Assembly: GCA_040881945.1 (NCBI GenBank)
Contig: JBBECF010000157.1
Location: forward strand, 13,301 to 77,300
Direction: 5' to 3'
From: Dongiaceae bacterium
Lineage (GTDB): Bacteria > Pseudomonadota > Alphaproteobacteria > Dongiales > Dongiaceae
Length of the DNA: 64,000 bases
Below the pieces are notes generated by a model, which saw nothing but the letters and a program-made list of their open reading frames with translations, ran no database searches and was not told where the DNA came from. The translations under genes were made by a program, and so were the position numbers. This document shows positions 3,846 to 55,270 of this stretch, piece by piece (the first letter of the stretch is position 1; every line of letters begins with the position of its first letter).

Positions 3846-4018
3846 GTCAGCCTCCTTCGGTCCGGCCTCGCCGCACCGGCATTCGCCGCGGCGCACCGCT
3901 GTCCGAATCGATTCTAAGTCCACGGCAAGGGCGTGGCTAGGGTGCGCAAACGACTCGTGGCGGTCCGGGCTATCGGACTCGTCCCCTGCTCCGTCGACGG
4001 GGGCTCGCGCGGCTAAAT

Positions 4019-4043
4019 TGGAATGATACTAGTAATTATTCCA
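4019..4043. promoter_or_regulatory. 25-bp near-perfect palindrome TGGAATGATACTAGTAATTATTCCA, candidate operator upstream of pqqA
   Basis: TGGAAT and ATTCCA arms flank a central ACTAGT. It sits in an AT-rich stretch about 65 bp upstream of the predicted pqqA -35. Confidence 0.35.
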
Positions 4044-4083
4044 TTCAAGACCCGGAAAACGAACATGTTTTCTTCCCCACATG

Positions 4084-4113
4084 TTGACACCATTCCGCTT
4101 GTCTGCGTATAAG
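4084..4113 (+). promoter_or_regulatory. sigma70-like promoter for pqqA (TTGACA-18 nt-TATAAG)
   Basis: TTGACA at 4084-4089 and TATAAG at 4108-4113, about 50 nt upstream of the pqqA ATG. It is flanked by two ACATGT palindromes at about 4064 and 4079. Confidence 0.5.
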
Positions 4114-4161
4114 GAGACTGTGACCTCAATCATATTAGAAAACTTCCAAGGGGGGCAAGAC

Positions 4162-4236
4162 ATGAAATGGGTTGAACCGACCTACTGTGACCTACGGCTG
4201 GGCTTCGAAGTCACCGCTTACGTCTACGTTCGTTAG
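4162..4236 (+). CDS. pqqA: PqqA precursor peptide (24 aa): MKWVEPTYCDLRLGFEVTAYVYVR
   Basis: Own translation; too short for the ORF track. It matches the PqqA signature (W3, R..G.EVT.Y with the Glu-X3-Tyr crosslink pair, C-terminal R). AAGGGGGG SD lies about 8 nt upstream, and pqqD/pqqE follow. Confidence 0.9.
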   Translation: MKWVEPTYCDLRLGFEVTAYVYVR

Positions 4237-4251
4237 CGGGTTCCCCGGGGG

Positions 4252-4275
4252 GGGGTCGGGTTTGCGCCCGACCCC
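4252..4275 (+). promoter_or_regulatory. GC-rich stem-loop just after pqqA (GGGGTCGGG-tttgcg-CCCGACCCC), no U-tract
   Basis: Perfect 9-bp stem 16 nt after the pqqA stop. It resembles the attenuator/stabiliser hairpins reported after pqqA in other pqq operons. Confidence 0.5.
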
Positions 4276-4317
4276 TCTCCAACGATCAACGCGCACCGCT
4301 TCCGCACGACGTCGACC

Positions 4318-4605
4318 ATGACGGGTGACCCTCAGATTCGGGCCATCGACTTCGTCGAGATCAACCCGCTGTACCTGTTTCGGTGGGAAGACCCGCAACA
4401 GGCCTATGTGTTGCTCTACCCGGAAGGCATCGTCAAACTCAACGGAACGGCTGGGGAAATCCTGAAGCTGTGCACCGGCGATAGAACCGTCGCGCAAGTC
4501 ATCGACGAGCTCGAGCAGAAGTTCCCGGGCGAGGCTGTCGCCGATAGTGCCCACAGGTTCCTGGAGGTCTCCCATGCCAAAGGCTGGATCAGGGTTAAGT
4601 CTTGA
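4318..4605 (+). CDS. pqqD: PqqD, PqqA-binding chaperone (RRE domain)
   Basis: 95 aa; the LYPEGIVKLNGTAGEILKLCTGDRTVAQVIDELEQKF pattern is typical of PqqD. It overlaps pqqE. Confidence 0.85.
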   Translation: MTGDPQIRAIDFVEINPLYLFRWEDPQQAYVLLYPEGIVKLNGTAGEILKLCTGDRTVAQVIDELEQKFPGEAVADSAHRFLEVSHAKGWIRVKS

Positions 4606-5725
4606 CGGTCTGGGGCAGCCGCTCTGGCTGCTGCTCGAGTTGACCTATCGCTGCCCGCTGAAGTGCCCGTGGTGCAACAATCCGGTCGATCTCGACAACT
4701 ACCGGAATGAACTCAGCACCGAGGAGTGGGTGCGCGTCATGCGCGAGGGCCGCGAGCTGGGGTCCCTGCAACTCGGATTCTCCGGCGGCGAGCCGGTGCT
4801 GCGCCCGGACCTGGAAGAGTTGATCGGCGAGGCCCATCGCCTCGGTTACTACACGAACCTCATCACCTCCGGGATGGGTCTGACGGCGGAGCGATTGCAG
4901 GCCTTCAAGCAGGCGGGCCTGCGGCAGATCCAGCTCAGCATCCAATCCTGCGATTCCACAATCACCGATTGGCTGGTCGGCAGCAACGGAGCCCACGCGC
5001 ACAAGCTGAATGTGGCGCGCGAGATCAAGGCCCATGGCTTTCCCATGGTCCTCAACGTGCCGGTCTGCCGCCAGAACATCGACCAAACCGAGCGGATCCT
5101 CGAGATGGCCGAAAGCATCGGCGCGGACTATCTCGAGTTCGCCAATCTGCAGTACTACAACTGGGCGCTGCTGAACCGGTCGGAGTTGCTTCCGACACAA
5201 GCCCAACTCAGACGCGCGGAGGCCTCGGTGAAGGCGGCGCGCGAGCGTCTCGGCAAACGGATGACGATCTATTTTGTCATCCCCGATTATTTCGACGGCC
5301 ACCCCAAGGCGTGCATGAACGGGTGGGGAGCGATCCACCTCACCATCGCGCCGGACGGCGCCGCCCTGCCCTGCCAGGAGGCGCGCGTCATCAAAGGTCT
5401 CGAATTCCCCTCCGTGCGCGACGCGAGCCTCGAGTGGATCTGGCGCGACTCGCCGATCTTCAACCGCTTCCGCGGCGACGACTGGATGAAGGACCCGTGC
5501 CGAAGCTGCGACAGCCGGCAGCAGGACTTCGCCGGATGCCGCTGTCAGGCCTACCTGCTCACCGGCGACGCCGCCAACGCCGATCCGGCCTGCAGCCGCG
5601 CGCCGCACCATCATCTGATCGAGGCGGCCGTGGCGGAAGCCGAGGGCGAGCATCGTGTCCCGCGACCGCTGGTCCTGCGCAAGCGGGGTGCGATCGCGGC
5701 CGCCCCCGTCGACCTGGGGCAGTGA
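4574..5725 (+). CDS. pqqE: PqqE radical-SAM/SPASM enzyme (PqqA Glu-Tyr crosslinking)
   Basis: LELTYRCPLKCPWCNNP (CX3CX2C), GFSGGEP, KACMNGWG, and the SPASM motif CRSCDSRQQDFAGCRCQAYLLTGDAANADPAC, collinear with canonical PqqE. ATG 4574 has GGAGG 6 nt upstream. The ORF-track start at 4547 is a GTG without SD. Confidence 0.9.
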   Translation: MPKAGSGLSLDGLGQPLWLLLELTYRCPLKCPWCNNPVDLDNYRNELSTEEWVRVMREGRELGSLQLGFSGGEPVLRPDLEELIGEAHRLGYYTNLITSGMGLTAERLQAFKQAGLRQIQLSIQSCDSTITDWLVGSNGAHAHKLNVAREIKAHGFPMVLNVPVCRQNIDQTERILEMAESIGADYLEFANLQYYNWALLNRSELLPTQAQLRRAEASVKAARERLGKRMTIYFVIPDYFDGHPKACMNGWGAIHLTIAPDGAALPCQEARVIKGLEFPSVRDASLEWIWRDSPIFNRFRGDDWMKDPCRSCDSRQQDFAGCRCQAYLLTGDAANADPACSRAPHHHLIEAAVAEAEGEHRVPRPLVLRKRGAIAAAPVDLGQ

Positions 5726-5820
5726 ATCTGCCGCACGACACTCTGGAGGGCACCGTCCTCGCAGGGATCTTGCTGACGGCGGCGCTCGCCCTGCTGATGC
5801 GCTGGCTGGGCGTCGGATAG
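5722..5820 (+). CDS. Candidate 32-aa single-TM peptide (M)NLPHDTLEGTVLAGILLTAALALLMRWLGVG, GTG start overlapping the pqqE stop (GTGA)
   Basis: Own translation. The start/stop overlap suggests translational coupling and the peptide has a hydrophobic helix. There is no convincing SD and no homology that I can assert. Confidence 0.2.
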   Translation: MNLPHDTLEGTVLAGILLTAALALLMRWLGVG

Positions 5821-5888
5821 CAGGCAAGAAGGGCAGCACGTCGGCCGGGCCGTTGCAACGGTCGGCCCGCAGGAATCGGCGGCGGCGC

Positions 5889-6392
5889 ATGGACCTTTCG
5901 ACCTTCGACATTGTAGCGCGCTGGATCCACGTCATCGCGGTCGTGACATGGATCGGGCACAACTACGCGAACGCCGTGCAACAGCCGGCGTTCCGGCCGG
6001 TCGCCCCCGACGACCCGCCGGAGGCGGCGCGCGCCGTCTTCATGGCGGCCCTGGGACGCGAGCATGCGCTGTTCCGCTATGCCTCGCTGGTCGCATGGGC
6101 CACGGGCCTGTTCATGCTGTGGTATCGCGGGCTGCTGCTCGACGCGTACATGCTGTCGGGGGACGCGGCCGCGATCGGCGTCGGGACGTGGACCGGCACC
6201 ATCATGGTGCTCAATGTGTGGCTGTTGCTGTGGCCGCATCAGCGGAAGGTGCTCGGGTTCACGCCGGCGACCACGGAAGAGCGCATTCGCTGCGCGCGGA
6301 TCACCTTCCTCACGGCGCGGACCAACACGATCCTGTCGTTTCCCACGATCTTCTTCATGGTGGCGGGGGCGCACGGGCCGCTCTTCGGATGA
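5889..6392 (+). CDS. Integral membrane protein, 4 predicted TM helices, conserved His motif (WIHVIAVVTWIGHNY)
   Basis: 167 aa from MDLSTF. Hydrophobic segments are at about 10-30, 70-90, 105-130 and 145-165. The N-terminal motif is reminiscent of CopD/PuuD-type membrane domains (recollection only). Its stop TGA overlaps the next gene's ATG (ATGATG). Confidence 0.6.
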   Translation: MDLSTFDIVARWIHVIAVVTWIGHNYANAVQQPAFRPVAPDDPPEAARAVFMAALGREHALFRYASLVAWATGLFMLWYRGLLLDAYMLSGDAAAIGVGTWTGTIMVLNVWLLLWPHQRKVLGFTPATTEERIRCARITFLTARTNTILSFPTIFFMVAGAHGPLFG

Positions 6393-7510
6393 TGGCCCGG
6401 CCGTTCAATTTCGCCGCCGGGCCGGGCATGCTGCCGGAGACGGTGCTGGCCCGCGTTCGCGAGGAACTGCTCGATTGGCGCGGTAGCGGCATGTCGGTGC
6501 TGGAGATGCCCTTCACCGGCCCGGAATTCGCCGAAATCCAGGCCGACGCCGTCGAGCGGCTGAAGCGCCTGCTGGCCATCCCCGTCAACTACCGCGTGCT
6601 GTTCCTGCAAGGCGGTGCCTACGGTCAGTTCGCCTTCGTCCCCCTGAACCTGCTACGCGGCCGGACTCGGGCGGCCTACGTCGAAACCGGCCACTGGTCC
6701 CGCCGGGCCATGACCGAGGCGCGGCGCTATTGCAGCGTCGAGACGGTGGCCAGCGGCGAACCCGACGGCTTCACGCGCATACCGCCGCGCGACGTCTGGC
6801 GGCTGTCCCCGGACGTGGCCTACTGCCACATCACGACCAACGAGACGGCCCAAGGCGTGCAGTTCCATTGGACGCCGGAGACCGCGGCGGTGCCGCTCGT
6901 CGCCGACATGACCTCCGATTTGCTGTCCCGACCGATCGACGTGGCGCGCTACGGCCTGATCTACGCCAGCGCCCAGAAAAGCATCGGTCCGGCGGGCCTG
7001 ACCATCGTCATCGTTCGCGACGACCTCCTGGGCGCGGCCCTGCCGGGAACGCCGGCGGTCTTCGACTACAAGAGGCAGGCCGACGCGGGGTCTCGGGTCA
7101 ACACGCCGCCCACCTTCGCGATCTACGTCGCCGGGCTCGTCTTCGAGTGGCTGGCGGAACAGGGCGGTCTGGCCGCGATGGAACGGCGGAACCGGCGCAA
7201 CAGCGCCAGACTCTACGCCGCCATCGACGCCAGCGGCGTCTATCGTTGCCCCGTTGCACCCCTCGACCGTTCGACGACGAACCCGTGTTTCCGGCTCGCC
7301 GACGAATCGCTCGAGGCGGATTTTCTGGCCGAGGCGCGCCGGCGCGGCCTGCTGAACCTCCAGGGACACCCGGCCGTGGGCGGCGTCCGCGTCAGTCTCT
7401 ACAATGCGATGCCCGATGCGGGCGTGGACGCGCTGATCGATTTCATGGCGACGTTCGCGCGTCGGCGCGGGCGATCGCGGCGGGAGCGAGGCGGGCGATC
7501 GGCGCCATGA
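6389..7510 (+). CDS. SerC-family (phosphoserine aminotransferase fold) PLP aminotransferase, divergent substrate pocket
   Basis: Collinear with E. coli SerC as I recall it: FNFAAGPGMLP, YRVLFLQGGAYGQFA, TNETAQG, SAQKSIGPAG (catalytic Lys), NTPPTF, GGVRVSLYNAMP. The conserved SHR is replaced by PFT, and GHR by GHP. Confidence 0.8.
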   Translation: MMARPFNFAAGPGMLPETVLARVREELLDWRGSGMSVLEMPFTGPEFAEIQADAVERLKRLLAIPVNYRVLFLQGGAYGQFAFVPLNLLRGRTRAAYVETGHWSRRAMTEARRYCSVETVASGEPDGFTRIPPRDVWRLSPDVAYCHITTNETAQGVQFHWTPETAAVPLVADMTSDLLSRPIDVARYGLIYASAQKSIGPAGLTIVIVRDDLLGAALPGTPAVFDYKRQADAGSRVNTPPTFAIYVAGLVFEWLAEQGGLAAMERRNRRNSARLYAAIDASGVYRCPVAPLDRSTTNPCFRLADESLEADFLAEARRRGLLNLQGHPAVGGVRVSLYNAMPDAGVDALIDFMATFARRRGRSRRERGGRSAP

Positions 7511-8754
7511 ATGCCTTCACCGTCGTCTTCCTCGCCGCGCTCGCCGCCGCAGTCGGCCTCGAGACCTGGTTGAACCTGCGCCAGCTCGCCCATCTGCGGG
7601 CGCACCGGTCAGCCGTGCCCCCGGGCTTCACGGATCGCGTGTCCCCGACCGCCCACCGGAGGGGGGCGGACTACACCATCGCGAGGACCCGGCTCGCCGT
7701 CGCCGTAACCGGCCTGGACGCCGCGTCGTTGCTGGGCTGGACCGTCGGCGGCGGGCTCGACCTGCTCGATAGGGCCTGGAACGCCCTGGACCTGGCCGCA
7801 CCCCTGGCGGGCGCCGGCGTGATCGCCAGCGCCCTACTGTTGAGCGCGCTGCTTCGCCTGCCGCTCGCCGCCTGCCGCCGGTTCGCCGTCGACGCACGCT
7901 TCGAGCTCAATCGCACAACGCCGCGGCTCTTCGCGACCGACGCGCTTACGAAAGGACTCCTGCTCGCCGGCGTGGCCGCGCCCCTGACCGCGCTGATCCT
8001 GTGGTCGATGGACGCCGCCGGCAGCCTGCGCTGGCCGGTCGCCTGGGTCCTGTGGACGGCCTACGTCGTAGTCCGGACATGGGCCTATCCCGGCCTCGTC
8101 GCGCCGCTGTTCAATCGCTTCGCGCCGCTGCCCGACGACGGATTGAGAAAACGGATCGCGGCGCTGCTCGAGCGCTGCGACCTGCGCCTTGGCGAGGTCG
8201 CGGTCATGGACGGGTCGCGGCGCTCCACGCACGGCAACGCGTCCGTCGCCGGGATCGGCCGCGGCAAGCGGGTCGTGCTCTTGGACACCCTCGTCGATGG
8301 TCTCGATCCCGACGAAATCGCCGCGGTGCTAGCCCACGAGCTCGGCCACCTCAAGCGTCGCCACATCGCCAAGCACCTCGCCGTCACCGCCGTCGCCAGC
8401 CTGGGATGCCTCATGCTCCTGGGCTGGCTCGCGGCGCGACCCGGCTTCTTCGCGGGGCTGGGTGTGGACCGGCCATCGCCACAGGCCGCGCTGGCGCTGC
8501 TGTTGCTGAGCCTGCCGACGCTCGCGGTGTTCGCGAAGCCGCTGGTCGCCGCCGTCTCGCGACGCTTCGAGTTCGAGGCCGACGCCTTCGCCACCCGCCA
8601 CGTCGATCCGCGCCTGTTGGTCCGCGCGCTGGAAAAACTCTATCGAACGAATGCGGAGAGCCTGTCGTCCGACCCGATCTATTCGGCGTTCCACCATTCG
8701 CACCCGCCGCCGCTGGCGCGCATCACGCGCCTGGCGGACGCCGTGTCGGGGTAA
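7507..8754 (+). CDS. M48 family zinc metallopeptidase, Ste24-like with N-terminal multi-TM domain
   Basis: HELGH at LAHELGHLKRRH and a downstream FEFEADAFA third-ligand motif. There are several N-terminal TM helices. The ATG overlaps the stop of the preceding gene (ATGA). Confidence 0.85.
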   Translation: MNAFTVVFLAALAAAVGLETWLNLRQLAHLRAHRSAVPPGFTDRVSPTAHRRGADYTIARTRLAVAVTGLDAASLLGWTVGGGLDLLDRAWNALDLAAPLAGAGVIASALLLSALLRLPLAACRRFAVDARFELNRTTPRLFATDALTKGLLLAGVAAPLTALILWSMDAAGSLRWPVAWVLWTAYVVVRTWAYPGLVAPLFNRFAPLPDDGLRKRIAALLERCDLRLGEVAVMDGSRRSTHGNASVAGIGRGKRVVLLDTLVDGLDPDEIAAVLAHELGHLKRRHIAKHLAVTAVASLGCLMLLGWLAARPGFFAGLGVDRPSPQAALALLLLSLPTLAVFAKPLVAAVSRRFEFEADAFATRHVDPRLLVRALEKLYRTNAESLSSDPIYSAFHHSHPPPLARITRLADAVSG

Positions 8755-8775: not shown

Positions 8776-9060
8776 CTACGGCTTTGCGACCTGGCGGCGA
8801 AATTGCTGCGGGGCGCTGCGCCCGATCAGGTTCTGGGCCATGGCGCGCGCCTGCGCGCAGGTCAGGGCGCCGTGCGTCCCGATCACCCGGCGGCACCTGA
8901 CGCCGCTGACCGCGGTGCGGTAGTAGGCGAAATAGGCCGGCCGCCCGCCCGGCGGGACGACGCACCCGAACCCCCATAGATCGGTGTCCCAGAGCACGAC
9001 CATCCGCGCGCCGGGGCGCACCGACCCGACCGTCTCGTCCGTCAACTGTACGCGCGCCAT
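8776..9060 (-). pseudogene. Remnant of a tyrosine integrase: arm-type DNA-binding (DUF4102-like) N-terminal domain only
   Basis: MARVQLTDETVGSVRPGARMVVLWDTDLWGFGCVVPPGGRPAYFAYYR...GTHGALTCAQARAMAQNL matches the LTD..VK....WD..L.GFG.RV...G...F...YR pattern of P4-type integrase N-termini. No catalytic domain follows; the M48 gene ends 22 bp away. Confidence 0.5.
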
Positions 9061-9129
9061 GATGTGGTTCCCGCCTGCCGGCCCGACGATCCGCAAAGCA
9101 CATCCGGGCCACCGCGTCCTTGACCTGGA

Positions 9130-10392
9130 TCAAGAGACAGGCCGCGGCGTCGGCGGGTAGGTCAGCAACATCTGGTTGGTGCCGTTGAGCACGGCATAGA
9201 GCCGGTCGAACTCGGTCTTGAAGGCCGGCCAGTCGAGGCGACCGGATTCCGCGACCGAGACGGCCTGGTGCAAGTCCGTCAGATTGCGGTGGCCGTCCAC
9301 CCGGGTCAGGATCGGCACGGCCCGCGGCGGCAGCGCGAACCGGGCGTCGATGCCGTCGACGCGCAACGCCAGAACCGGCCCCGGCTTGATGCGATCCACG
9401 AGATCGGCGGCGGCGCAGCGGTGCAGGATCGGCACCGCCGCCGGGTCGTCGGGGCGCGCGACCGCCTGGCCGGCGCGCCCAGCCTTGACGACGTAGCAGA
9501 CATGGCGTTTCAGGTTGCCCGCCAGCAGCTCGGCGAAGGCCGCGCGCTCGAACCGGCCGAGCCCGGCGAGCCGCTTGAGGATCGCGCCGTCGCTCACATA
9601 TCGCGCCGGATCGTACCGCCACGGTTCGATGAAGCTACAGATCTCGAGTCCCGCGCCGGTCACGAGCTCGACCAGTTCCGGGACCGTATAGGGGCGGTCC
9701 CGGCCGTGCAGCAGCAGGTCGTACAGCCCCGCGTCGCCGCCGCGGATGTGGTCGACGACGACCGGATTGCGGGCGAACCAATTGGTCGGCGGCAATTGCT
9801 TCAACAGTCGCCGCGCGACCTCGACGTGCGTCGCCGGCGGGTCCGCCGGCGGCGTCAGCCGCCGCAGCATCGCCTGCATCTGATAGACGCCGGTGCGGCC
9901 GAGCGCGCCGTACACCATCAAGGCCATGCCGCCGTCGCCGACCAGCGCGTCGGCAAGCGCACGCAGCGCCACCGGGGGGTCGTCGAGATGGTGCAGCACG
10001 CCGACGCAGTCGATGTAATCGAACCGGCCGAGCCCGAGCGCCGCCAACTCGGTCAGGGAACCGACGACGAAGCGGGCGTTGCCGAGGCCGCGCGCCGCCA
10101 CCCGCGCCTCGGCGATGCGCGTCGAGGCGGCCGACAGATCGAGGTGGACCACCTCGGCCGGGCAGCCGCGATCGGCGAGTCGCTGGGCCAACATGACGGT
10201 GACGTCGCCGGTGCCGCCGCCGGCGACCAGGACGCGGAACAGCCGGCTGAAATCGCGCCGCCCGGCATAGACGTAATGGTCGATTTCGTCGAGATGACTC
10301 TGCGTCGTCTCGATCAGGCGCTTGGCCTCGTCGCGCGGGTCGCGCGCCGGATAGGGATAGACCTCGTACTGGTCGCGAACGGGATCGGTCAT
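9130..10392 (-). CDS. Class I SAM-dependent methyltransferase (420 aa, with C-terminal extension)
   Basis: Motif I VLVAGGGTGD, an acidic loop HLDLS, and DYIDCVGVLHHL typical of Methyltransf_11/25-type folds. Confidence 0.75.
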   Translation of the reverse strand: MTDPVRDQYEVYPYPARDPRDEAKRLIETTQSHLDEIDHYVYAGRRDFSRLFRVLVAGGGTGDVTVMLAQRLADRGCPAEVVHLDLSAASTRIAEARVAARGLGNARFVVGSLTELAALGLGRFDYIDCVGVLHHLDDPPVALRALADALVGDGGMALMVYGALGRTGVYQMQAMLRRLTPPADPPATHVEVARRLLKQLPPTNWFARNPVVVDHIRGGDAGLYDLLLHGRDRPYTVPELVELVTGAGLEICSFIEPWRYDPARYVSDGAILKRLAGLGRFERAAFAELLAGNLKRHVCYVVKAGRAGQAVARPDDPAAVPILHRCAAADLVDRIKPGPVLALRVDGIDARFALPPRAVPILTRVDGHRNLTDLHQAVSVAESGRLDWPAFKTEFDRLYAVLNGTNQMLLTYPPTPRPVS

Positions 10393-51987: not shown

Positions 51988-52683
51988 TCAGCCGCCGCAG
52001 TCGTAGGCGTGGTCGCCGGCCGGCCGGGCGGCGGGGCACGCCAGGTCGATCGTGACGCCCTCGACGTCGCGGTTGGCGCTGGCGTAGCTGCACGACACGC
52101 CGTCGCCACGGGCCGTCGAATCGGCAAGCGACAACGCGACCGTGGCGGTGCGCGCCCGCCGCGCGGCCGGCGCCGACGCGGTCACCGTCGCGTCGAGGCT
52201 GGCCGGGCAGACGACGCGGATCGCCGCGGCGCGCCCCCCGGGCGCCTGCCCCGCCCCCGCCTCGATGACCCGCAGGGTGACTTGGCCGATGTTGTTGTCG
52301 AGGTCGTCCTCGAGGATCTCGCGACGCTGGTCGAGCTCGCAGGAGATGCGCCGTTCGCCGAGCGCGTCGGCGCGCCAGTTGAACTGATAGCTGTAGCGCC
52401 CGTCGCGCGGCAGGCCGCGGAACTCCGACACCGCCCGACCGTCGACCTTGATTTCGCCGCGCCAGGTGCGCAGGGGCCGGGTCAGGATATCGCCCTCGAC
52501 CACCCGATAGTTGCATTGGATGTTGACGTACTCGCCGAACGGCGTCTCGTCCACCGGCCGGCGGTCGCGCAGCGCCGCCACCGCCGTGACCGACAGGTCG
52601 TGCTTGGTTTGCGCCACGGCCGGCAAGCTGCCGATGGCGGCCGCGAGGGCAAGGAAGACGAGGCCGGCGATCGCTCGTTGCAT
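51988..52683 (-). CDS. Secreted hypothetical protein, Cys-containing
   Basis: The internal ATG 52683 gives the signal peptide MQRAIAGLVFLALAAAIGSLPAVAQT. The upstream part of the track ORF is Arg-rich junk. Confidence 0.55.
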   Translation of the reverse strand: MQRAIAGLVFLALAAAIGSLPAVAQTKHDLSVTAVAALRDRRPVDETPFGEYVNIQCNYRVVEGDILTRPLRTWRGEIKVDGRAVSEFRGLPRDGRYSYQFNWRADALGERRISCELDQRREILEDDLDNNIGQVTLRVIEAGAGQAPGGRAAAIRVVCPASLDATVTASAPAARRARTATVALSLADSTARGDGVSCSYASANRDVEGVTIDLACPAARPAGDHAYDCGG

Positions 52684-52757
52684 GGTGGCGCCTTGGCTAG
52701 GATGGGCTGCGGCGCGCCGCGCCGTCGCCACGATTTGGCGTGCGCGTCGCCGGGCCG

Positions 52758-53180
52758 TCAAGCCTTGCCGGCGGAAGCCCCGCCGCCGGGCGCGGGCTTG
52801 GGCAGCGGCCGCGGGCGCCCGTCCGGGCCGAGCGCGACATAGGTGAACACGCCTTCGGTCACCCGCTCGGCGGCGCCGTCGGCGCGGCGCTCGACCCAGG
52901 TCTCGACGTCCACGGTCAGCGACGTGCGCCCGCTGCGGACCAGCCGCGCGTAGCAGCTCACCAGGTCGCCGATAAAAACCGGCCGGTGGAAGCTCATGGC
53001 GTCGACCGCCACGGTGGCGACCCGACCGCGCGCCCGGCGCACCGCCTCGACGCTGCCGGCGAGATCCATCTGGGCCATCAGCCAGCCGCCGAAGATGTCG
53101 CCGTTCGGGTTGGCGTCGGCGGGCATGGCGATGGTCCGCAAGGCCGGCTCGCGGCCGGCGGGCGGAGCGGCGGACGGCAT
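52758..53180 (-). CDS. Acyl-CoA thioesterase (YciA-like hotdog fold)
   Basis: LRTIAMPADANPNGDIFGGWLMAQMDLAG closely follows the E. coli YciA N-terminus as I recall it. The start is uncertain (53180 or 53231). Confidence 0.8.
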   Translation of the reverse strand: MPSAAPPAGREPALRTIAMPADANPNGDIFGGWLMAQMDLAGSVEAVRRARGRVATVAVDAMSFHRPVFIGDLVSCYARLVRSGRTSLTVDVETWVERRADGAAERVTEGVFTYVALGPDGRPRPLPKPAPGGGASAGKA

Positions 53181-53290
53181 CTTTACGTTCCCCGGGACTC
53201 GCAATATGTAGTAAGGACTGTCGCCGACCATACAGCATGAAGGCCGGCCGCGCGCAAGTCTCGCGGCGCCGCCCCAGATAAACGTGGCCG

Positions 53291-55270
53291 ATGCCCGACC
53301 TGTTCGATGACCTCGAGCGCAAGTCCGCCGACTACACCGCCAAGGACATCGAGGTCCTGGAAGGCCTCGAGCCCGTGCGCCGCCGCCCCGCCATGTTTAT
53401 CGGCGGCACCGACGAGCGGGCGCTGCACCACCTCGTCGCCGAGCTCCTGGACAACGCCATGGACGAGGCCGTGGCCGGCCACGCCACCCGCATCGAGCTC
53501 GAGCTCGACGCCGAGGGCTTCGTCACCGTGCGCGACAACGGCCGCGGCATTCCGGTCGAGCCGCACCCGAAGTTCAAGGACAAGTCGGCCCTCCAGGTGA
53601 TCCTGACGACGCTCCATTCGGGCGGCAAGTTCGGCGGCAAGGCCTATGTGACGTCGGGCGGGCTGCACGGCGTCGGGCTGTCCGTGGTCAACGCGCTCGC
53701 CGACCATCTGAGCGTCGAGACGGTGCGCGACCGCCAGCTCTACGTCCAGGCCTACGCCCGCGGCAAGCCCGCATCGAAACTGCGCAAGCAGGGCGCCGCG
53801 GCCAAGCGGCGCGGCACCGCGGTGCGCTTCCATCCCGACCCGGAGATCTTCCCGGCCGGAACCGCCTTCCGGCCCGAGCGGATGTACCGCATGGCGCGGT
53901 CGAAGGCCTATCTGTTCCGCGGCGTCGAGATCCGCTGGAGCTGCGACCCGAAACTGATCGGCGCTGGCGACGCGACCCCGGCGCGCGAGACACTGCACTT
54001 TCCCGGCGGCCTTTTGGATTTCCTCAATGCCAGCCTGGAGGGCCGCGAAACCGTCACCGCGACACCTTTTTTCGGCGAAGCGGCCTTTCCCGACGGCAGC
54101 GGCCGGGTCGAATGGGCGATGAGCTGGCCGGCCGACGGCGACGGCTTTCTCAACTCCTATTGCAACACCATTCCGACGCCTGAGGGCGGCACGCACGAGG
54201 CGGGTCTGCGCGCCGGCTTGTCCCGCTCGCTCAAGGCCTATGGCGAGCTCGTCGGCAACCGCAAGGCGGCGCAGGTCACCGCCGAGGATATCGCCGGCGG
54301 CGCCTGCGTGTTGTTGTCGCTGTTCCTGCGCGACCCGCAGTTCCAGGGGCAGACCAAGGAGCGGCTGGCGTCGTCCGAGGCGGCGCGGCTCGTCGAGGCG
54401 TCGATCAAGGACCACTTCGACCACTGGCTGTCGGGCGACCCGGAGCAGGCGGCCCGGCTGCTGGAGCGGGTGGTCGAGCGCGCCGAGGACCGGCTGCGCC
54501 GGCGCCAGGACAAGGAGGCCGAGCGCAAGACGGCGACGCGCAAGCTGCGCCTGCCCGGCAAGCTCGCCGATTGCAGCCGCGCCGGGGCGGTCGGTACCGA
54601 GCTGTTCCTGGTCGAAGGCGATTCGGCCGGCGGCTCGGCCAAGCAGGCGCGCGACCGCGCGACCCAGGCCGTCCTGCCCCTGCGCGGCAAGATCCTCAAC
54701 GTCGCCAGCGCCTCGGCCGACCGGCTGCGCGACAACCAGGAGCTGGCCGACCTGGTGCAGGCGCTCGGCTGCGGCACGCGCGACAAGTACAGCGACGACA
54801 AGCTGCGCTACGAGCGCATCGTCATCATGACCGACGCCGACGTCGACGGCGCCCACATCGCCTCGCTGCTGATGACCTTCTTCTATCGCGAGATGCCGGG
54901 CCTGATCGAGAACGGCCACCTCTACCTCGCCTTGCCGCCGCTCTATCGCATCAGCCAGGGCGGCCAGTCGGCCTACGCCCGCGACGACGCGCACAAGGAC
55001 GAGCTGCTGGCCACGGTCTTCAAGGGCCGCGGCAAGGTCGAGATCAGCCGCTTCAAGGGCCTCGGCGAAATGCCGGCGGCGCAGCTCCGCGACACCGCCA
55101 TGGCGCCGGGCAAGCGCACGCTGTTGCGCGTCGTCGTCCCGGGCCGCGGCGACCGCGCCGAGACCAAGGCGACCGCCGAGCTGGTCGAGAGCCTGATGGG
55201 GCGCAAGCCCGAACTGCGCTTCGCCTACATCCAGGAAAACGCCCGCTTCGTCCGCGACCTCGATGTCTGA
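53291..55270 (+). CDS. parE: DNA topoisomerase IV subunit B
   Basis: 659 aa with LEGLEPVRRRPAMFIGGT, the GHKL ATPase motifs, and Toprim EGDSAGGSA and IMTDADVDGAHI. Its size lacks the GyrB insert. Confidence 0.88.
   Translation: MPDLFDDLERKSADYTAKDIEVLEGLEPVRRRPAMFIGGTDERALHHLVAELLDNAMDEAVAGHATRIELELDAEGFVTVRDNGRGIPVEPHPKFKDKSALQVILTTLHSGGKFGGKAYVTSGGLHGVGLSVVNALADHLSVETVRDRQLYVQAYARGKPASKLRKQGAAAKRRGTAVRFHPDPEIFPAGTAFRPERMYRMARSKAYLFRGVEIRWSCDPKLIGAGDATPARETLHFPGGLLDFLNASLEGRETVTATPFFGEAAFPDGSGRVEWAMSWPADGDGFLNSYCNTIPTPEGGTHEAGLRAGLSRSLKAYGELVGNRKAAQVTAEDIAGGACVLLSLFLRDPQFQGQTKERLASSEAARLVEASIKDHFDHWLSGDPEQAARLLERVVERAEDRLRRRQDKEAERKTATRKLRLPGKLADCSRAGAVGTELFLVEGDSAGGSAKQARDRATQAVLPLRGKILNVASASADRLRDNQELADLVQALGCGTRDKYSDDKLRYERIVIMTDADVDGAHIASLLMTFFYREMPGLIENGHLYLALPPLYRISQGGQSAYARDDAHKDELLATVFKGRGKVEISRFKGLGEMPAAQLRDTAMAPGKRTLLRVVVPGRGDRAETKATAELVESLMGRKPELRFAYIQENARFVRDLDV

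Follow-up and report, generated by a model that had tools for sequence, protein, structure and literature searches.

A minority variant of a widespread second type of PQQ cassette in a Dongiaceae genome, with a likely theme of oxygen independence

The DNA analyzed in this study, a 64-kb stretch (the window) from a Dongiaceae MAG, carries seven tightly packed genes on one strand between positions 4162 and 8754. These are pqqA, pqqD, pqqE, an ORF of 32 aa, and three genes whose products are a membrane protein resembling PuuD, an aminotransferase of the SerC fold and an M48 protease. All seven ORFs are complete, with catalytic motifs present and start/stop overlaps preserved. pqqD and pqqE overlap by 32 nt, and the pqqE stop overlaps the start of the 32-aa ORF (GTGA); after a gap of 68 nt, the stop of the PuuD-like gene overlaps the SerC-like start (ATGATG), and the SerC-like gene in turn overlaps the M48 gene at ATGA, stop with start. 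Genes, coordinates and junctions, as described in a first-pass annotation, were confirmed on the sequence and with family profiles. Cluster members at >=90% identity number 11-13 and derive from several metagenomes, and the population was recovered from several metagenomes with an unchanged gene order.

The pqqA gene (4162..4236, + strand; PF08042, 36.9 bits; TIGR02107, 30.3 bits with a cut-off of 20) encodes a 24-aa precursor peptide, MKWVEPTYCDLRLGFEVTAYVYVR, which ends in TAYVYVR and contains a conserved Cys9 as well as E-X3-Y, the crosslink motif. The peptide had been called canonical, but it belongs to a cassette-specific subtype, W..P.[YF]C[DE].R.GFEVTAYVY[VT]R, which was found upstream of pqqD in 67 loci. 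Canonical pqqA genes adjoining pqqB in the same genomes end in ...GFEVTMY..NR, whereas in the cassette type the Cys is invariant and the tail reads YVY(V/T)R. Directly 3' of the pqqA stop lies a G+C-rich hairpin of 15 bp with no T-run (4247..4280, + strand); the segment 4230-4320 folds at -42.1 kcal/mol (z = -2.0). Relatives generally carry a stem-loop in the 70 nt that follow their cassette pqqA (median z -2.2 over 72 loci), and its sequence differs among them. The hairpin probably sets how much precursor is made relative to the enzymes, either by attenuation or by stabilising the mRNA.

Upstream of pqqA is an AT-rich control region (4014..4161, + strand), in which pattern matches were read from the sequence. 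It includes a putative sigma-70-type promoter close to the consensus (TTGACA at 4084-4089 and TATAAG at 4108-4113, separated by 18 nt), a pattern match that a stricter promoter scan of the region did not list. Two palindromes, TGGAATGAT-N7-ATTATTCCA at 4019-4043 and ACATGT-N10-ACATGT within 4061-4086, and a G-rich ribosome-binding site at about 4150-4157 were also found. Many relatives have FNR or sigma-54 sites upstream of the cassette, whereas the Dongiaceae copy has neither: the best match to an FNR box had 3 mismatches, and no sigma-54 motif was found in the region. The Dongiaceae cassette appears to be driven by the sigma-70-type promoter. The GC content is 41.2% at 4014-4161 and 58.3% in pqqD, against about 70% in the flanks, and GC3 climbs along the cassette from 0.64 in pqqA through 0.76 in pqqD (the lowest among the protein-sized genes) and 0.85 in pqqE to 0.87-0.90 in the downstream genes; other window genes average 0.896 +/- 0.035. 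The GC figures given earlier hold, but only the first ~450 nt are truly deviant.

The product of pqqD (4318..4605, + strand; TIGR03859, 89.1 bits with a cut-off of 46; PF05402) is by its family the RiPP recognition element that chaperones the PqqA peptide. PqqE (4574..5725, + strand; TIGR02109, 507 bits with a cut-off of 381) contains Radical_SAM and SPASM domains and a CX3CX2C motif, and is identified by these as the radical-SAM/SPASM enzyme for the Glu-Tyr C-C crosslink. It falls within a cassette clade: identity averages 68% among cassette PqqEs and 54% against canonical PqqEs, those of the same genomes included, and canonical sequences form the outgroup to this clade in an NJ tree. Judged by their sequences, PqqA, PqqD and PqqE of the cassette are subtypes of their own.

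The 32-aa ORF (5722..5820, + strand), conserved in relatives, encodes a micro-protein, MNLPHDTLEGTVLAGILLTAALALLMRWLGVG, with a single transmembrane helix and, at the N-terminus, the motif LPH(D/E)(T/S)xxGT. It matched no family in Pfam or NCBIfam. Outside Hyphomicrobium, most loci, from three proteobacterial classes, have an ORF of 30-38 aa that shares this motif and position. The micro-protein is probably a small subunit of the PuuD-like membrane protein encoded next (167 aa; 5889..6392, + strand). The latter is annotated as urate hydroxylase, and its partial match to PF06181 (Urate_ox_N) covers only profile positions 162-240 of 295. The cassette protein contains four long helices, comprises half the membrane domain and lacks a cytochrome c domain. 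An alignment of 25 sequences showed strict conservation of H14, H24, H59, H162 and C135, and of several Arg and Trp positions. An AF2 model (pLDDT 88) showed four helices, and its fold had no match among solved structures. Relatives of the protein were found in 262 species genomes, and its gene is the marker gene of the cassette.

The SerC-fold PLP-dependent aminotransferase (6389..7510, + strand) shares about 50% identity with solved SerCs (E = 7e-121) and keeps both the arginine of GG.R and the PLP lysine (AQK). GenBank lists it as SerC, and its score of 481 bits exceeds the NCBIfam SerC equivalog cut-off of 253. Nevertheless, all 78 cassette SerC-like sequences have PF(T/S)x in place of SHRS (His41-Arg42) and GH(S/P/A/G) in place of GHR (Arg329), and new conserved basic residues occur in W-S-x-R-A and (R/K)-x-NTP. 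The residues binding the phosphate or the substrate's distal acid group are thus lost, and the protein reads as a cassette-specific paralogue with a re-specified active site, not as the housekeeping SerC.

The last gene encodes a Ste24-type M48 integral-membrane zinc protease (415 aa; 7507..8754, + strand; Peptidase_M48_N and Peptidase_M48) with the motifs HELGH, SRRFEFEADAF and HSHPP; an HMM of cassette-linked M48s gave it 413 bits. In 22 of the 70 assessable loci the cassette ends 3' with an M48 gene on its own strand, and in L005 and L063 such a gene lies divergently upstream. The enzyme is probably the peptidase that processes PqqA. The usual sixth cassette gene is a pyrD-like gene for a dihydroorotate dehydrogenase (DHODH)-like quinone dehydrogenase, whose nearest relatives are class-2 quinone DHODHs (E = 1e-42); it is absent from the Dongiaceae window, which represents a minority variant with M48 kept. 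Immediately 3' of the cassette, a weak match to an integrase N-terminal fragment (Arm-DNA-bind_3) occurs at 8776-9096 on the - strand.

HMMs built from 13 PqqB, 13 PqqC and 69 DHODH-like sequences gave no match at E<=10 in any frame of the 64 kb. The earlier statement that pqqB and pqqC are missing from the window thus stands. A Pfam scan of ten unassigned ORFs found no M16 peptidase; the other large ORFs were assigned by length, gene order and summary annotation only. The sole MBL-fold protein of the window is RNase J. The flanks look like core chromosome, with dnaE and a nuo cluster (nuoL/M/N and nuoB/C/D families); further ORFs fit lolD and tig-clpP-clpX-lon by size and order alone.

A synteny survey was performed on 80 species genomes of alpha-, beta- and gammaproteobacteria that carry the short PuuD-like gene. 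Its immediate upstream neighbour is pqqE in 71/71 assessable loci, SerC-like follows the PuuD-like gene in 74/77, and the DHODH-like gene is present in 68/73 (93% of relatives), while the cassette flanks are unrelated between genomes. Some variants, such as Azospirillum L019 and L028, have no SerC-like gene, so the gene set is not fixed. The first-pass annotation had offered two readings and preferred neither, and the survey supports its interpretation in part. One was a split canonical operon, with pqqB/pqqC elsewhere; in that case the genes of the membrane protein, SerC and M48 would be housekeeping genes that follow by chance. The database annotations as SerC and urate hydroxylase, the SerC equivalog score and the core-chromosome surroundings would fit it. 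However, the conserved order amid unrelated flanks, translational coupling through the whole set, the lost SerC residues and the halved membrane domain without cytochrome c all speak against it, and a complete canonical pqqBCDE operon adjoins the cassette in L010, L011, L086 and L088, in the first three of which, with its own pqqD and pqqE, it makes the cassette a second set. We therefore regard the split operon as highly improbable and effectively refuted by the synteny. A landing of pqqADE upstream of an older membrane-serC-M48 unit likewise finds no support, as the PuuD-like gene was never seen without pqqE upstream. The other reading, a different tailoring set, passed the comparative co-occurrence test: the linkage of pqqADE with the membrane and SerC-like genes is essentially invariant, and M48, the third member of the proposed trio, is a recurrent seventh gene. 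Finding pqqB/pqqC elsewhere had been named among the grounds against a distinct pathway, but this is normal for cassette genomes and no argument against one. Nor is the branch undescribed, since pqqAED-puuD-serC-pyrD clusters have been noted, with explicit speculation on anaerobic PQQ synthesis (PMC12423496, section 2.9; 2025). By this comparison, a second PQQ cassette type is widespread, and the Dongiaceae copy is a variant of it.

Several features point to oxygen independence, a likely theme that the first-pass annotation missed, as it did the absence of the pyrD-like gene. Two U32 peptidases (UbiU/V type) and an SCP2 protein (UbiT type) flank the cassette in 30/72 loci, accompanied by UbiD, UbiX and Crp/FNR genes; ubiT/U/V function in oxygen-independent ubiquinone synthesis. 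In L005, L006 and L009 the cassette is flanked by nrdD/G and nar genes, and 16/72 loci have a perfect FNR box in the 300 nt before the cassette pqqA (mean of dinucleotide shuffles, 0.04). In H. denitrificans, transcripts of the cluster shift together with denitrification and ubiTUV genes (PMC12423496). No FNR box, ubiTUV, nar, nrdD or PQQ-dependent enzyme was found in the 64-kb window, so the anaerobic context of the Dongiaceae cassette is borrowed wholly from relatives.

Whether the product is PQQ has to be weighed against another PqqA-derived molecule, a new quinone-type cofactor or small RiPP, formed from the crosslinked variant PqqA by M48 excision, SerC-like transamination and membrane oxidation. 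With one amino group removed, the PQQ ring system could not form as usual; PQQ keeps both amino nitrogens, which leaves the aminotransferase without an obvious place in the pathway. Established PQQ biosynthesis needs no transamination, yet the aminotransferase with its rebuilt pocket is nearly universal. The separate PqqE clade and the fixed, distinct PqqA could also mean a different product, and a full canonical operon usually coexists, the cassette being reported elsewhere too as a second set beside it (PMC12423496), as a second product would predict. Against this, Sedimenticola, L014 and L076 have the merged order pqqB-pqqC-pqqA (cassette type)-pqqD-pqqE-puuD-like, and only one pqqADE set occurs in the examined sequence (up to 10 kb on each side), which implies that PqqB/PqqC are fed by this same crosslinked peptide. 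In 8 loci, PQQ-dehydrogenase genes occur no more than 10 kb from the cassette, the enzymes replaced are precisely the O2-dependent ones, and the genomic and regulatory context is that of anaerobic cofactor synthesis. A different product is thus possible but rather unlikely, and oxygen independence is the likelier theme.

The Dongiaceae copy might also be incomplete and possibly decaying, yielding no finished cofactor and at most crosslinked PqqA for PqqB/PqqC elsewhere. The missing DHODH-like gene, the neighbouring integrase fragment and the lack of anaerobic context in the window favor this, as does sporadic loss of the DHODH-like gene in Terasakiella, where one MAG (L072) is without it and three congeners keep it. 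But the seven ORFs and their motifs are intact, the ATGA overlap of SerC-like and M48 leaves no deletion scar visible, GC3 of the downstream genes is typical of the host, and several metagenomes share the gene order. L039 shows the same architecture independently, and a housekeeping or distant DHODH-like gene could act in trans. Decay is thus a marginal prospect, and the copy is an intact minority variant.

In sum, the region 4162-8754 is best read as one conserved unit, a second-type PQQ cassette whose product would be PQQ or a close derivative made without O2, a reading to which we assign a probability of roughly 0.55. PqqA, PqqD and PqqE would form the Glu-Tyr crosslink by radical-SAM chemistry with no need of O2, and M48 would excise the crosslinked Glu-Tyr from PqqA. 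The cassette would replace exactly the O2-consuming late enzymes, PqqB hydroxylase and PqqC oxidase. The PuuD-like protein and its micro-protein may oxidize the ring at the membrane with oxygen from water, passing electrons to the respiratory chain, a route proposed for the cytochrome-c urate oxidase PuuD, which hands electrons to cytochrome c and not to O2 (PMC4562309). Where present, the DHODH-like enzyme could dehydrogenate the Glu-derived ring and deliver electrons to the quinone pool, and SerC-like may perform an O2-free amine/keto exchange on a non-phosphorylated polycarboxylate intermediate. The end product would be PQQ or a very close derivative, formed O2-free. The cassette would thus probably let bacteria make the cofactor PQQ without oxygen.

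Seven genes on the plus strand make up the cassette in the window. The first, pqqA (4162-4236), matched PF08042 (36.9 bits) and TIGR02107 (30.3 bits, cut-off 20) and carries the E-X3-Y motif as EVTAY. It is followed by pqqD (4318-4605; TIGR03859, 89.1 bits, cut-off 46) and by pqqE (4574-5725; TIGR02109, 507 bits, cut-off 381), which contains CX3CX2C and overlaps pqqD by 32 nt; PqqA, PqqD, and PqqE each exceeded the curated equivalog cut-offs (Pfam, NCBIfam). A 32-aa ORF (5722-5820) opens in a GTGA at the pqqE stop and is separated by a 68-nt gap from the gene for a 167-aa PuuD-like membrane protein (5889-6392), which matched PF06181 (Urate_ox_N) partially, at profile positions 162-240 of 295. 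An ATGATG overlap joins this gene to a SerC-fold gene (6389-7510; NF003764, 481 bits, cut-off 253), the stop of which overlaps the M48 gene (7507-8754) in an ATGA. The M48 product combines Peptidase_M48_N (PF16491, 117 bits) and Peptidase_M48 (PF01435, 102 bits), with HELGH and SRRFEFEAD representing HEXXH and the downstream Glu. Genes and junctions were all as described in the first-pass annotation, according to the ORF list and the raw sequence.

The ORFs of the window were annotated with purpose-built HMMs and one Pfam batch. At E ≤ 10, an HMM from 13 PqqB of related loci found no PqqB among the six-frame ORFs of the 64 kb, one from 13 PqqC found no PqqC in any frame of the window, and one from 69 cassette DHODH-like proteins found no DHODH-like (pyrD-like) gene in the 64 kb. 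RNase J is the sole MBL-fold protein of the window, and a Pfam scan of ten unassigned ORFs found no M16 peptidase. The earlier claim that pqqB and pqqC are missing from the 64 kb thus holds at this threshold, as does that on M16 for those ten ORFs. Neither a creatininase gene nor a PQQ-dehydrogenase gene was found in the window, the rest of which resembles core chromosome: profiles identified dnaE, nuo subunit families, and an OmpA-domain protein, four tRNA genes are present, and further ORFs fit lolD and tig-clpP-clpX-lon by size and order alone. A 444-aa ORF on the minus strand (51988-53322) showed coding-like GC3 (0.91) and no Pfam match at E ≤ 1e-5.

A scan of 185,579 species genomes, with aligned short PuuD-like proteins as the query, gave 262 relatives; the best 80 of these 262 loci were annotated by tblastn and purpose-built HMMs. 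Among these 80, pqqE lay directly upstream of the PuuD-like gene in all 71 assessable loci, and a SerC-like gene (74/77 loci), a DHODH-like gene (68/73), and an M48 gene (22/70) followed; M48 lies divergently upstream in two more, L063 (seen in the genome scan) and L005 (seen in a separate context look-up), L-numbers denoting cassette-bearing loci of relatives. Sixty-six loci were fully assessable for the genes after pqqADE and the PuuD-like gene: SerC-like and DHODH-like genes follow in 40 loci and in L049, where pqqE is present; SerC-like, DHODH-like, and M48 genes in 18; a SerC-like gene only in three; DHODH-like and M48 genes without a SerC-like gene in two, both from Azospirillum; and SerC-like and M48 genes without a DHODH-like gene, which matches the window, in two (L039 and L072). 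The closest non-identical PqqE relatives sit in wholly different neighborhoods with the gene order unchanged. In GCA_037024435.1, for example, PqqA-PqqD-PqqE-32 aa-PuuD-like-Aminotran_5-DHO_dh-like is found between nrdD/G and cox genes; the identical gene set adjoins narG/narXL in Marinobacter sp. SS13-12, and in a 5.8-Mb Motiliproteus genome it is immediately followed by a complete canonical pqqB-pqqC-pqqD-pqqE-S9 peptidase operon.

This conserved order with differing flanks makes two readings untenable, namely that the downstream genes are unrelated neighbors, which the survey counts rule out, and that pqqADE landed beside an older unit. The latter acquisition scenario had been suggested in the first-pass annotation and is wrong, since the linkage is universal. 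Its reading of an alternative tailoring set gained support from the comparative analysis that it had proposed, as the membrane protein, SerC-like, and M48 genes are linked to pqqE at the frequencies given; the branch is not undescribed, because PMC12423496 already noted pqqAED-puuD-serC-pyrD clusters. The presence of pqqB and pqqC elsewhere in the genome, which had been put forward as evidence against that reading, does not discriminate, since the cassette coexists with full canonical operons in L010, L011, L086, and L088. We regard it as nearly certain that the cassette forms a conserved functional unit that differs from the canonical operon.

Several loci deviate from the common order. Three Azospirillum MAGs (L019, L028, and L038) possess pqqADE and the PuuD-like, DHODH-like, and M48 genes without a SerC-like gene, and may be viewed as natural "knock-outs". 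In three Hyphomicrobium MAGs (L024, L060, and L069) the cassette seems to stop at the SerC-like gene, and the next 3-5 kb gave no match to DHODH-like or M48 genes. L005 (GCA_030157145.1) contains two cassette-clade PqqE genes on one contig (6026-7207 and 10001-11149; 71% and 75% identical to that of the window), one of them an orphan with no adjoining pqqD; the divergent M48 gene lies between both, and narH/J/I-like and hemerythrin genes are located upstream.

The distinction from the canonical operon extends to the precursor and its radical enzyme. A signature, W..P.[YF]C[DE].R.GFEVTAYVY[VT]R, was found in the cassette PqqA of 67 loci and fits the PqqA of the window, whereas the pqqA products encoded beside pqqB in the same genomes end in ...GFEVTMY..NR. 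Cassette PqqEs form a clade with a mean identity of 68%, within which the window PqqE falls; canonical PqqEs, even where both types share a genome, form an outgroup at 54%. The window locus shares with canonical pqqABCDE(F/G/H) operons (Klebsiella, Methylorubrum, Pseudomonas) an E-X3-Y PqqA, equivalog-level PqqD and PqqE, the pqqD/pqqE overlap, and a hairpin 3' of pqqA. It differs in lacking PqqB, PqqC, and an M16/S9 protease, in having pqqD directly after pqqA, in the separate subtypes of PqqA and PqqE, and in the four non-pqq genes coupled downstream.

The SerC-like protein shares about 50% identity with SerCs of solved structure (PDB match, E = 7e-121) and keeps the PLP lysine and the arginine of GG.R; in addition to its NF003764 score, the window protein reached 436.7 bits with TIGR01364, slightly below the cut-off of 443.6. 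All 78 cassette sequences have PF(T/S)x in place of SHRS and GH(S/P/A/G) in place of GHR, the window residues being EMPFTGPEF and GHPAVGGVR (PFTG and GHP); the arginine of GHR is presumably Arg329 of E. coli SerC, in both numbering and role. Basic residues are newly conserved at W-S-x-R-A and (R/K)-x-NTP. In E. coli SerC, the distal acid group of the substrate is bound by His41 and Arg42, as stated where PMC6797613 cites Hester 1999. Since the His41-Arg42 and GHR residues are substituted, the SerC-like enzyme is a re-specified paralogue, not the housekeeping SerC, and a polycarboxylate substrate would fit its added positive charges. Thus, compared with SerC/PdxF (PDB 1BJN/1BJO, 4XK1), the window enzyme is similar in fold type, length, PLP lysine, and carboxylate-binding arginine, whereas the cassette subfamily lacks His41, Arg42, and Arg329, has extra basic residues, and is always encoded within a pqq cassette. 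The GenBank name of the window protein (MEX1205942.1, 6389-7510) is "3-phosphoserine/phosphohydroxythreonine transaminase"; the name is probably wrong for the entire cassette subfamily, because the binding residues for the substrate's acid group have been lost.

PuuD is an integral-membrane cytochrome c urate oxidase that delivers electrons to cytochrome c, not O2 (PMC4562309). The PuuD-like protein shares with it the homology of the DUF989/PF06181 membrane domain (PMC4562309), and the presumed chemistry, in which an N-heterocycle is oxidized at the membrane and O2 does not accept the electrons directly, is taken as a likeness. PuuD has eight helices and a cytochrome c, whereas the PuuD-like protein, with 167 aa and four helices, has no second membrane half and no cytochrome c, and its gene never adjoins urate-catabolism genes in the loci examined; the window protein has a single Cys and no CXXCH. 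His14, His24, His59, His162, and Cys135 are invariant in the alignment, together with several Arg and Trp residues. An AF2 model shows four long helices (pLDDT 88) and had no significant match in a fold search of the PDB (best E = 0.13). GenBank names the protein "urate hydroxylase PuuD" (MEX1205941.1, 5889-6392), which is probably wrong for the entire cassette subfamily, given the half membrane domain and the lack of cytochrome c.

The 32-aa ORF is, on the evidence of its sequence conservation, a real conserved gene. In most loci outside the Hyphomicrobium clade a micro-ORF of 30-38 aa occupies the same position, encoding M(K/R)LPH(D/E)(T/S)xxGT and one hydrophobic helix; the micro-protein belongs to no family in Pfam or NCBIfam.

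Further enzymes accompany the cassette in relatives. The nearest relatives of the DHODH-like protein are class-2 quinone-reducing DHODHs (E = 1e-42). A creatininase-family gene (PF02633, 221 bits) was observed 3' of the cassette M48 gene in L027, L032, L045, L052, L055, L072, L076, L081, L082, and L087. The creatininase family includes the mycofactocin peptidase MftE, and the creatininase may act in the cassette as an additional enzyme of peptide processing.

The composition of the window cassette is uneven. The region upstream of pqqA (4014-4161) has a GC content of 41.2% and pqqD of 58.3%, against about 70% in the flanks, in agreement with the hand counts of the first-pass annotation. GC3 forms a gradient, from 0.64 in pqqA through 0.76 in pqqD and 0.85 in pqqE to 0.87-0.90 in the four downstream genes, the remaining genes of the window having 0.896 +/- 0.035. 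No flanking direct repeats and no tRNA gene were found at the cassette. A recent horizontal insertion of pqqADE alone was rejected, because the linkage is universal, direct repeats and tRNA genes are missing, and GC3 deviates only over pqqA-pqqD. The sole trace of mobility is a fragment of about 94-106 aa from an integrase N-terminus (8776-9096, minus strand; weak match to Arm-DNA-bind_3) directly after the M48 stop, near which there are no att-like repeats or tRNA genes. It is followed by a 420-aa SAM methyltransferase (9130-10392) and is kept in the sister assemblies L001, L091, and L092.

Upstream of pqqA lies a near-consensus promoter of the sigma-70 type (TTGACA at 4084-4089, an 18-nt spacer, and TATAAG at 4108-4113), as judged by pattern match only. 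The palindrome TGGAATGAT-N7-ATTATTCCA (4019-4043) lies upstream of the putative -35 element, and ACATGT-N10-ACATGT (within 4061-4086) overlaps it; both may be operator sites for unspecified regulators. Neither was seen in the upstream regions of L005, L039, and L063. A 15-bp G+C hairpin follows pqqA (4247-4280); relatives generally have such hairpins, with differing sequences. Within 5726-5888, part of which is the conserved micro-ORF, a pattern scan found no terminator, and the gap folds no better than shuffles (z = +1.0).

In relatives, the cassette is linked to PQQ and to anoxia. A merged order, with pqqB-pqqC upstream of a single cassette-type pqqA-pqqD-pqqE-puuD-like-serC-like-DHODH-like-M48 set, was found in Sedimenticola, L014 (a Thalassospiraceae MAG), and L076; pqqB-pqqC directly precede the set in the first two and are about 3 kb away from it in L076. 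The pqqB/C genes of Terasakiella are located a short distance downstream of the cassette on the opposite strand, and eight loci have PQQ-dependent dehydrogenase genes within 10 kb. The merged operons and nearby dehydrogenases suggest that the normal pathway can accept the crosslinked cassette PqqA, and argue that the cassette serves the same cofactor. They weigh against the alternative that the cassette makes a different PqqA-derived product, a new cofactor, a possibility that draws on the fixed differences in the cassette PqqA and on the uncertain SerC-like step, PQQ keeping both amino nitrogens; we consider this alternative rather unlikely.

The flanking ORFs of 72 non-redundant loci were clustered, and the most recurrent clusters were annotated with Pfam. 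In 30 of the 72 loci, the flanks of the cassette encode two U32 peptidases and an SCP2 protein, which are the UbiU/UbiV/UbiT set for ubiquinone synthesis without O2. Further recurrent products of flanking genes are UbiD, UbiX, and Crp/FNR regulators, and other loci adjoin nrdD/G or nar genes. A perfect FNR box (TTGAT-N4-ATCAA) is present within 300 nt 5' of the cassette pqqA in 16 of the 72 loci (dinucleotide shuffles: mean 0.04, maximum 1); FNR/Crp-type boxes lie 105-235 nt upstream of pqqA in L016, L019, L020, L021, L028, L038, L041, L047, L051, L056, L059, L073, L077, L080, L084, and L089. Ten of the 72 loci (L005, L006, L011, L016, L050, L056, L063, L077, L083, and L089) carry a sigma-54-type -24/-12 motif (TGGCA[CT]-N5-[TA]TGC) 80-115 nt upstream of pqqA, compared with 0.3% of random windows, and some loci combine the two elements. 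The window copy is unusual twice, being without the DHODH-like gene and without anaerobic hallmarks: no FNR box was found upstream (the best match has 3 mismatches), and the window contains no sigma-54 promoter and no ubiTUV, nar, or nrdD genes. That this copy is incomplete or decaying is quite improbable. All seven of its ORFs are intact, with the motifs CX3CX2C, AQK, and HELGH/EFEAD present and the start/stop overlaps preserved, and near-identical copies with unchanged gene order occur in several metagenomes (Dongiaceae MAGs, Logan assemblies).

The Hyphomicrobium denitrificans clusters of the Hden_0548-0553 type (PMC12423496, Mol Microbiol 2025) likewise consist of second-type pqqA/D/E followed by genes for four-helix PuuD-like and SerC-like proteins, and the transcript abundance of Hden_0548-0553 shifts alongside denitrification and ubiTUV genes (PMC12423496, section 2.9). 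The same paper names "pqqAED-puuD-serC-pyrD" clusters in several denitrifiers and finds an O2-independent end of PQQ synthesis "tempting to speculate", the function of the second clusters being speculation only. The window proteins are orthologous to those of these clusters (59-77% identity for PqqE, 54-64% for the PuuD-like protein, 46-66% for the SerC-like protein). The window differs in having no pyrD-like gene, in an M48 gene translationally coupled to the serC-like gene and unmentioned in PMC12423496, and in the lack of a ubiTUV, fatty-acid, or nor neighborhood and of an FNR box; its 32-aa micro-ORF is absent from the Hyphomicrobium clade. A literature search found no experimental work on anaerobic PQQ synthesis and met the topic only in PMC12423496. 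The idea of anaerobic PQQ is thus not new, having been voiced as speculation in 2025. Beyond that paper, the analysis adds the conserved micro-protein, the M48 and creatininase accessory peptidases, the distinct subtypes of PqqA and PqqE, the altered active site of the SerC-like enzyme, the operons that merge pqqBC with the cassette, the upstream FNR and sigma-54 elements, the linkage to ubiTUV across classes, and the natural variants without a SerC-like or DHODH-like gene.

The chemistry of PqqE is inherently anaerobic. PqqB and PqqC, the late enzymes of PQQ synthesis, both need O2, and it is exactly these two that the cassette lacks. We give a probability of roughly 0.5-0.55 to the reading that the cassette provides an O2-independent route to PQQ; that this route is self-sufficient from PqqA onward is about as likely as not. 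In such a route, a Ste24-type M48 chamber protease, suited to the 24-residue PqqA, would excise the crosslinked residues and stand in for the canonical PqqF/G/H/L, and the replacements of PqqB and PqqC would plausibly dispose of electrons without O2. The half-size PuuD-like membrane oxidase, with the 32-aa protein as a subunit, may introduce oxygen from water and deliver the electrons to the respiratory chain; the PuuD reaction is an oxidation followed by water addition. In most genomes, the DHODH-like protein could perform a quinone-linked ring completion, since the class-2 DHODH reaction, dehydrogenation of a carboxylated N-heterocycle, is akin to aromatization of the Glu-derived ring of the PQQ precursor. 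The re-specified SerC-fold PLP enzyme might help to complete the rings through an O2-free amine/keto exchange on an intermediate, by analogy to the oxidative deamination by MftD. This step is the weak point of the proposed mechanism, because both amino nitrogens are retained in PQQ.

Mycofactocin synthesis involves MftA/B/C, the creatininase-type peptidase MftE, and MftD, which uses O2 and FMN. Common traits are a PqqD-like chaperone and a radical-SAM/SPASM enzyme acting on a Tyr peptide, a dedicated peptidase, an amine-to-carbonyl conversion, and a redox cofactor as product; the precursor and chemistry differ, and a PLP enzyme would carry out the amine/keto exchange in the cassette. The UbiT/UbiU/UbiV pathway, as far as Pelosi et al. 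2019 is cited in PMC12423496, follows the same concept of a parallel set replacing O2-dependent quinone-cofactor hydroxylases under anoxia, whereas it has no sequence relationship to the cassette, the U32/SCP2 proteins lying outside it. On canonical producers, the part of PMC12423496 that bears on them cites Klebsiella and P. aeruginosa as forming no PQQ anaerobically.

In sum, the survey delineates a compact set of candidate genes, present in at least 262 species and with a clear sequence signature for each component, and flags two probable systematic annotation errors in public genomes among cassette proteins, "phosphoserine transaminase" and "urate hydroxylase PuuD". These signatures, together with the natural variants lacking the SerC-like or DHODH-like gene, make the question testable by genetics or anaerobic heterologous expression; the SerC-less Azospirillum variants could reveal the step served by the aminotransferase. 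Denitrifying methylotrophs rely on PQQ-dependent dehydrogenases without O2. If the cassette is indeed an O2-independent route to PQQ, it would explain how denitrifying and anaerobic methylotrophs keep these dehydrogenases working without O2.
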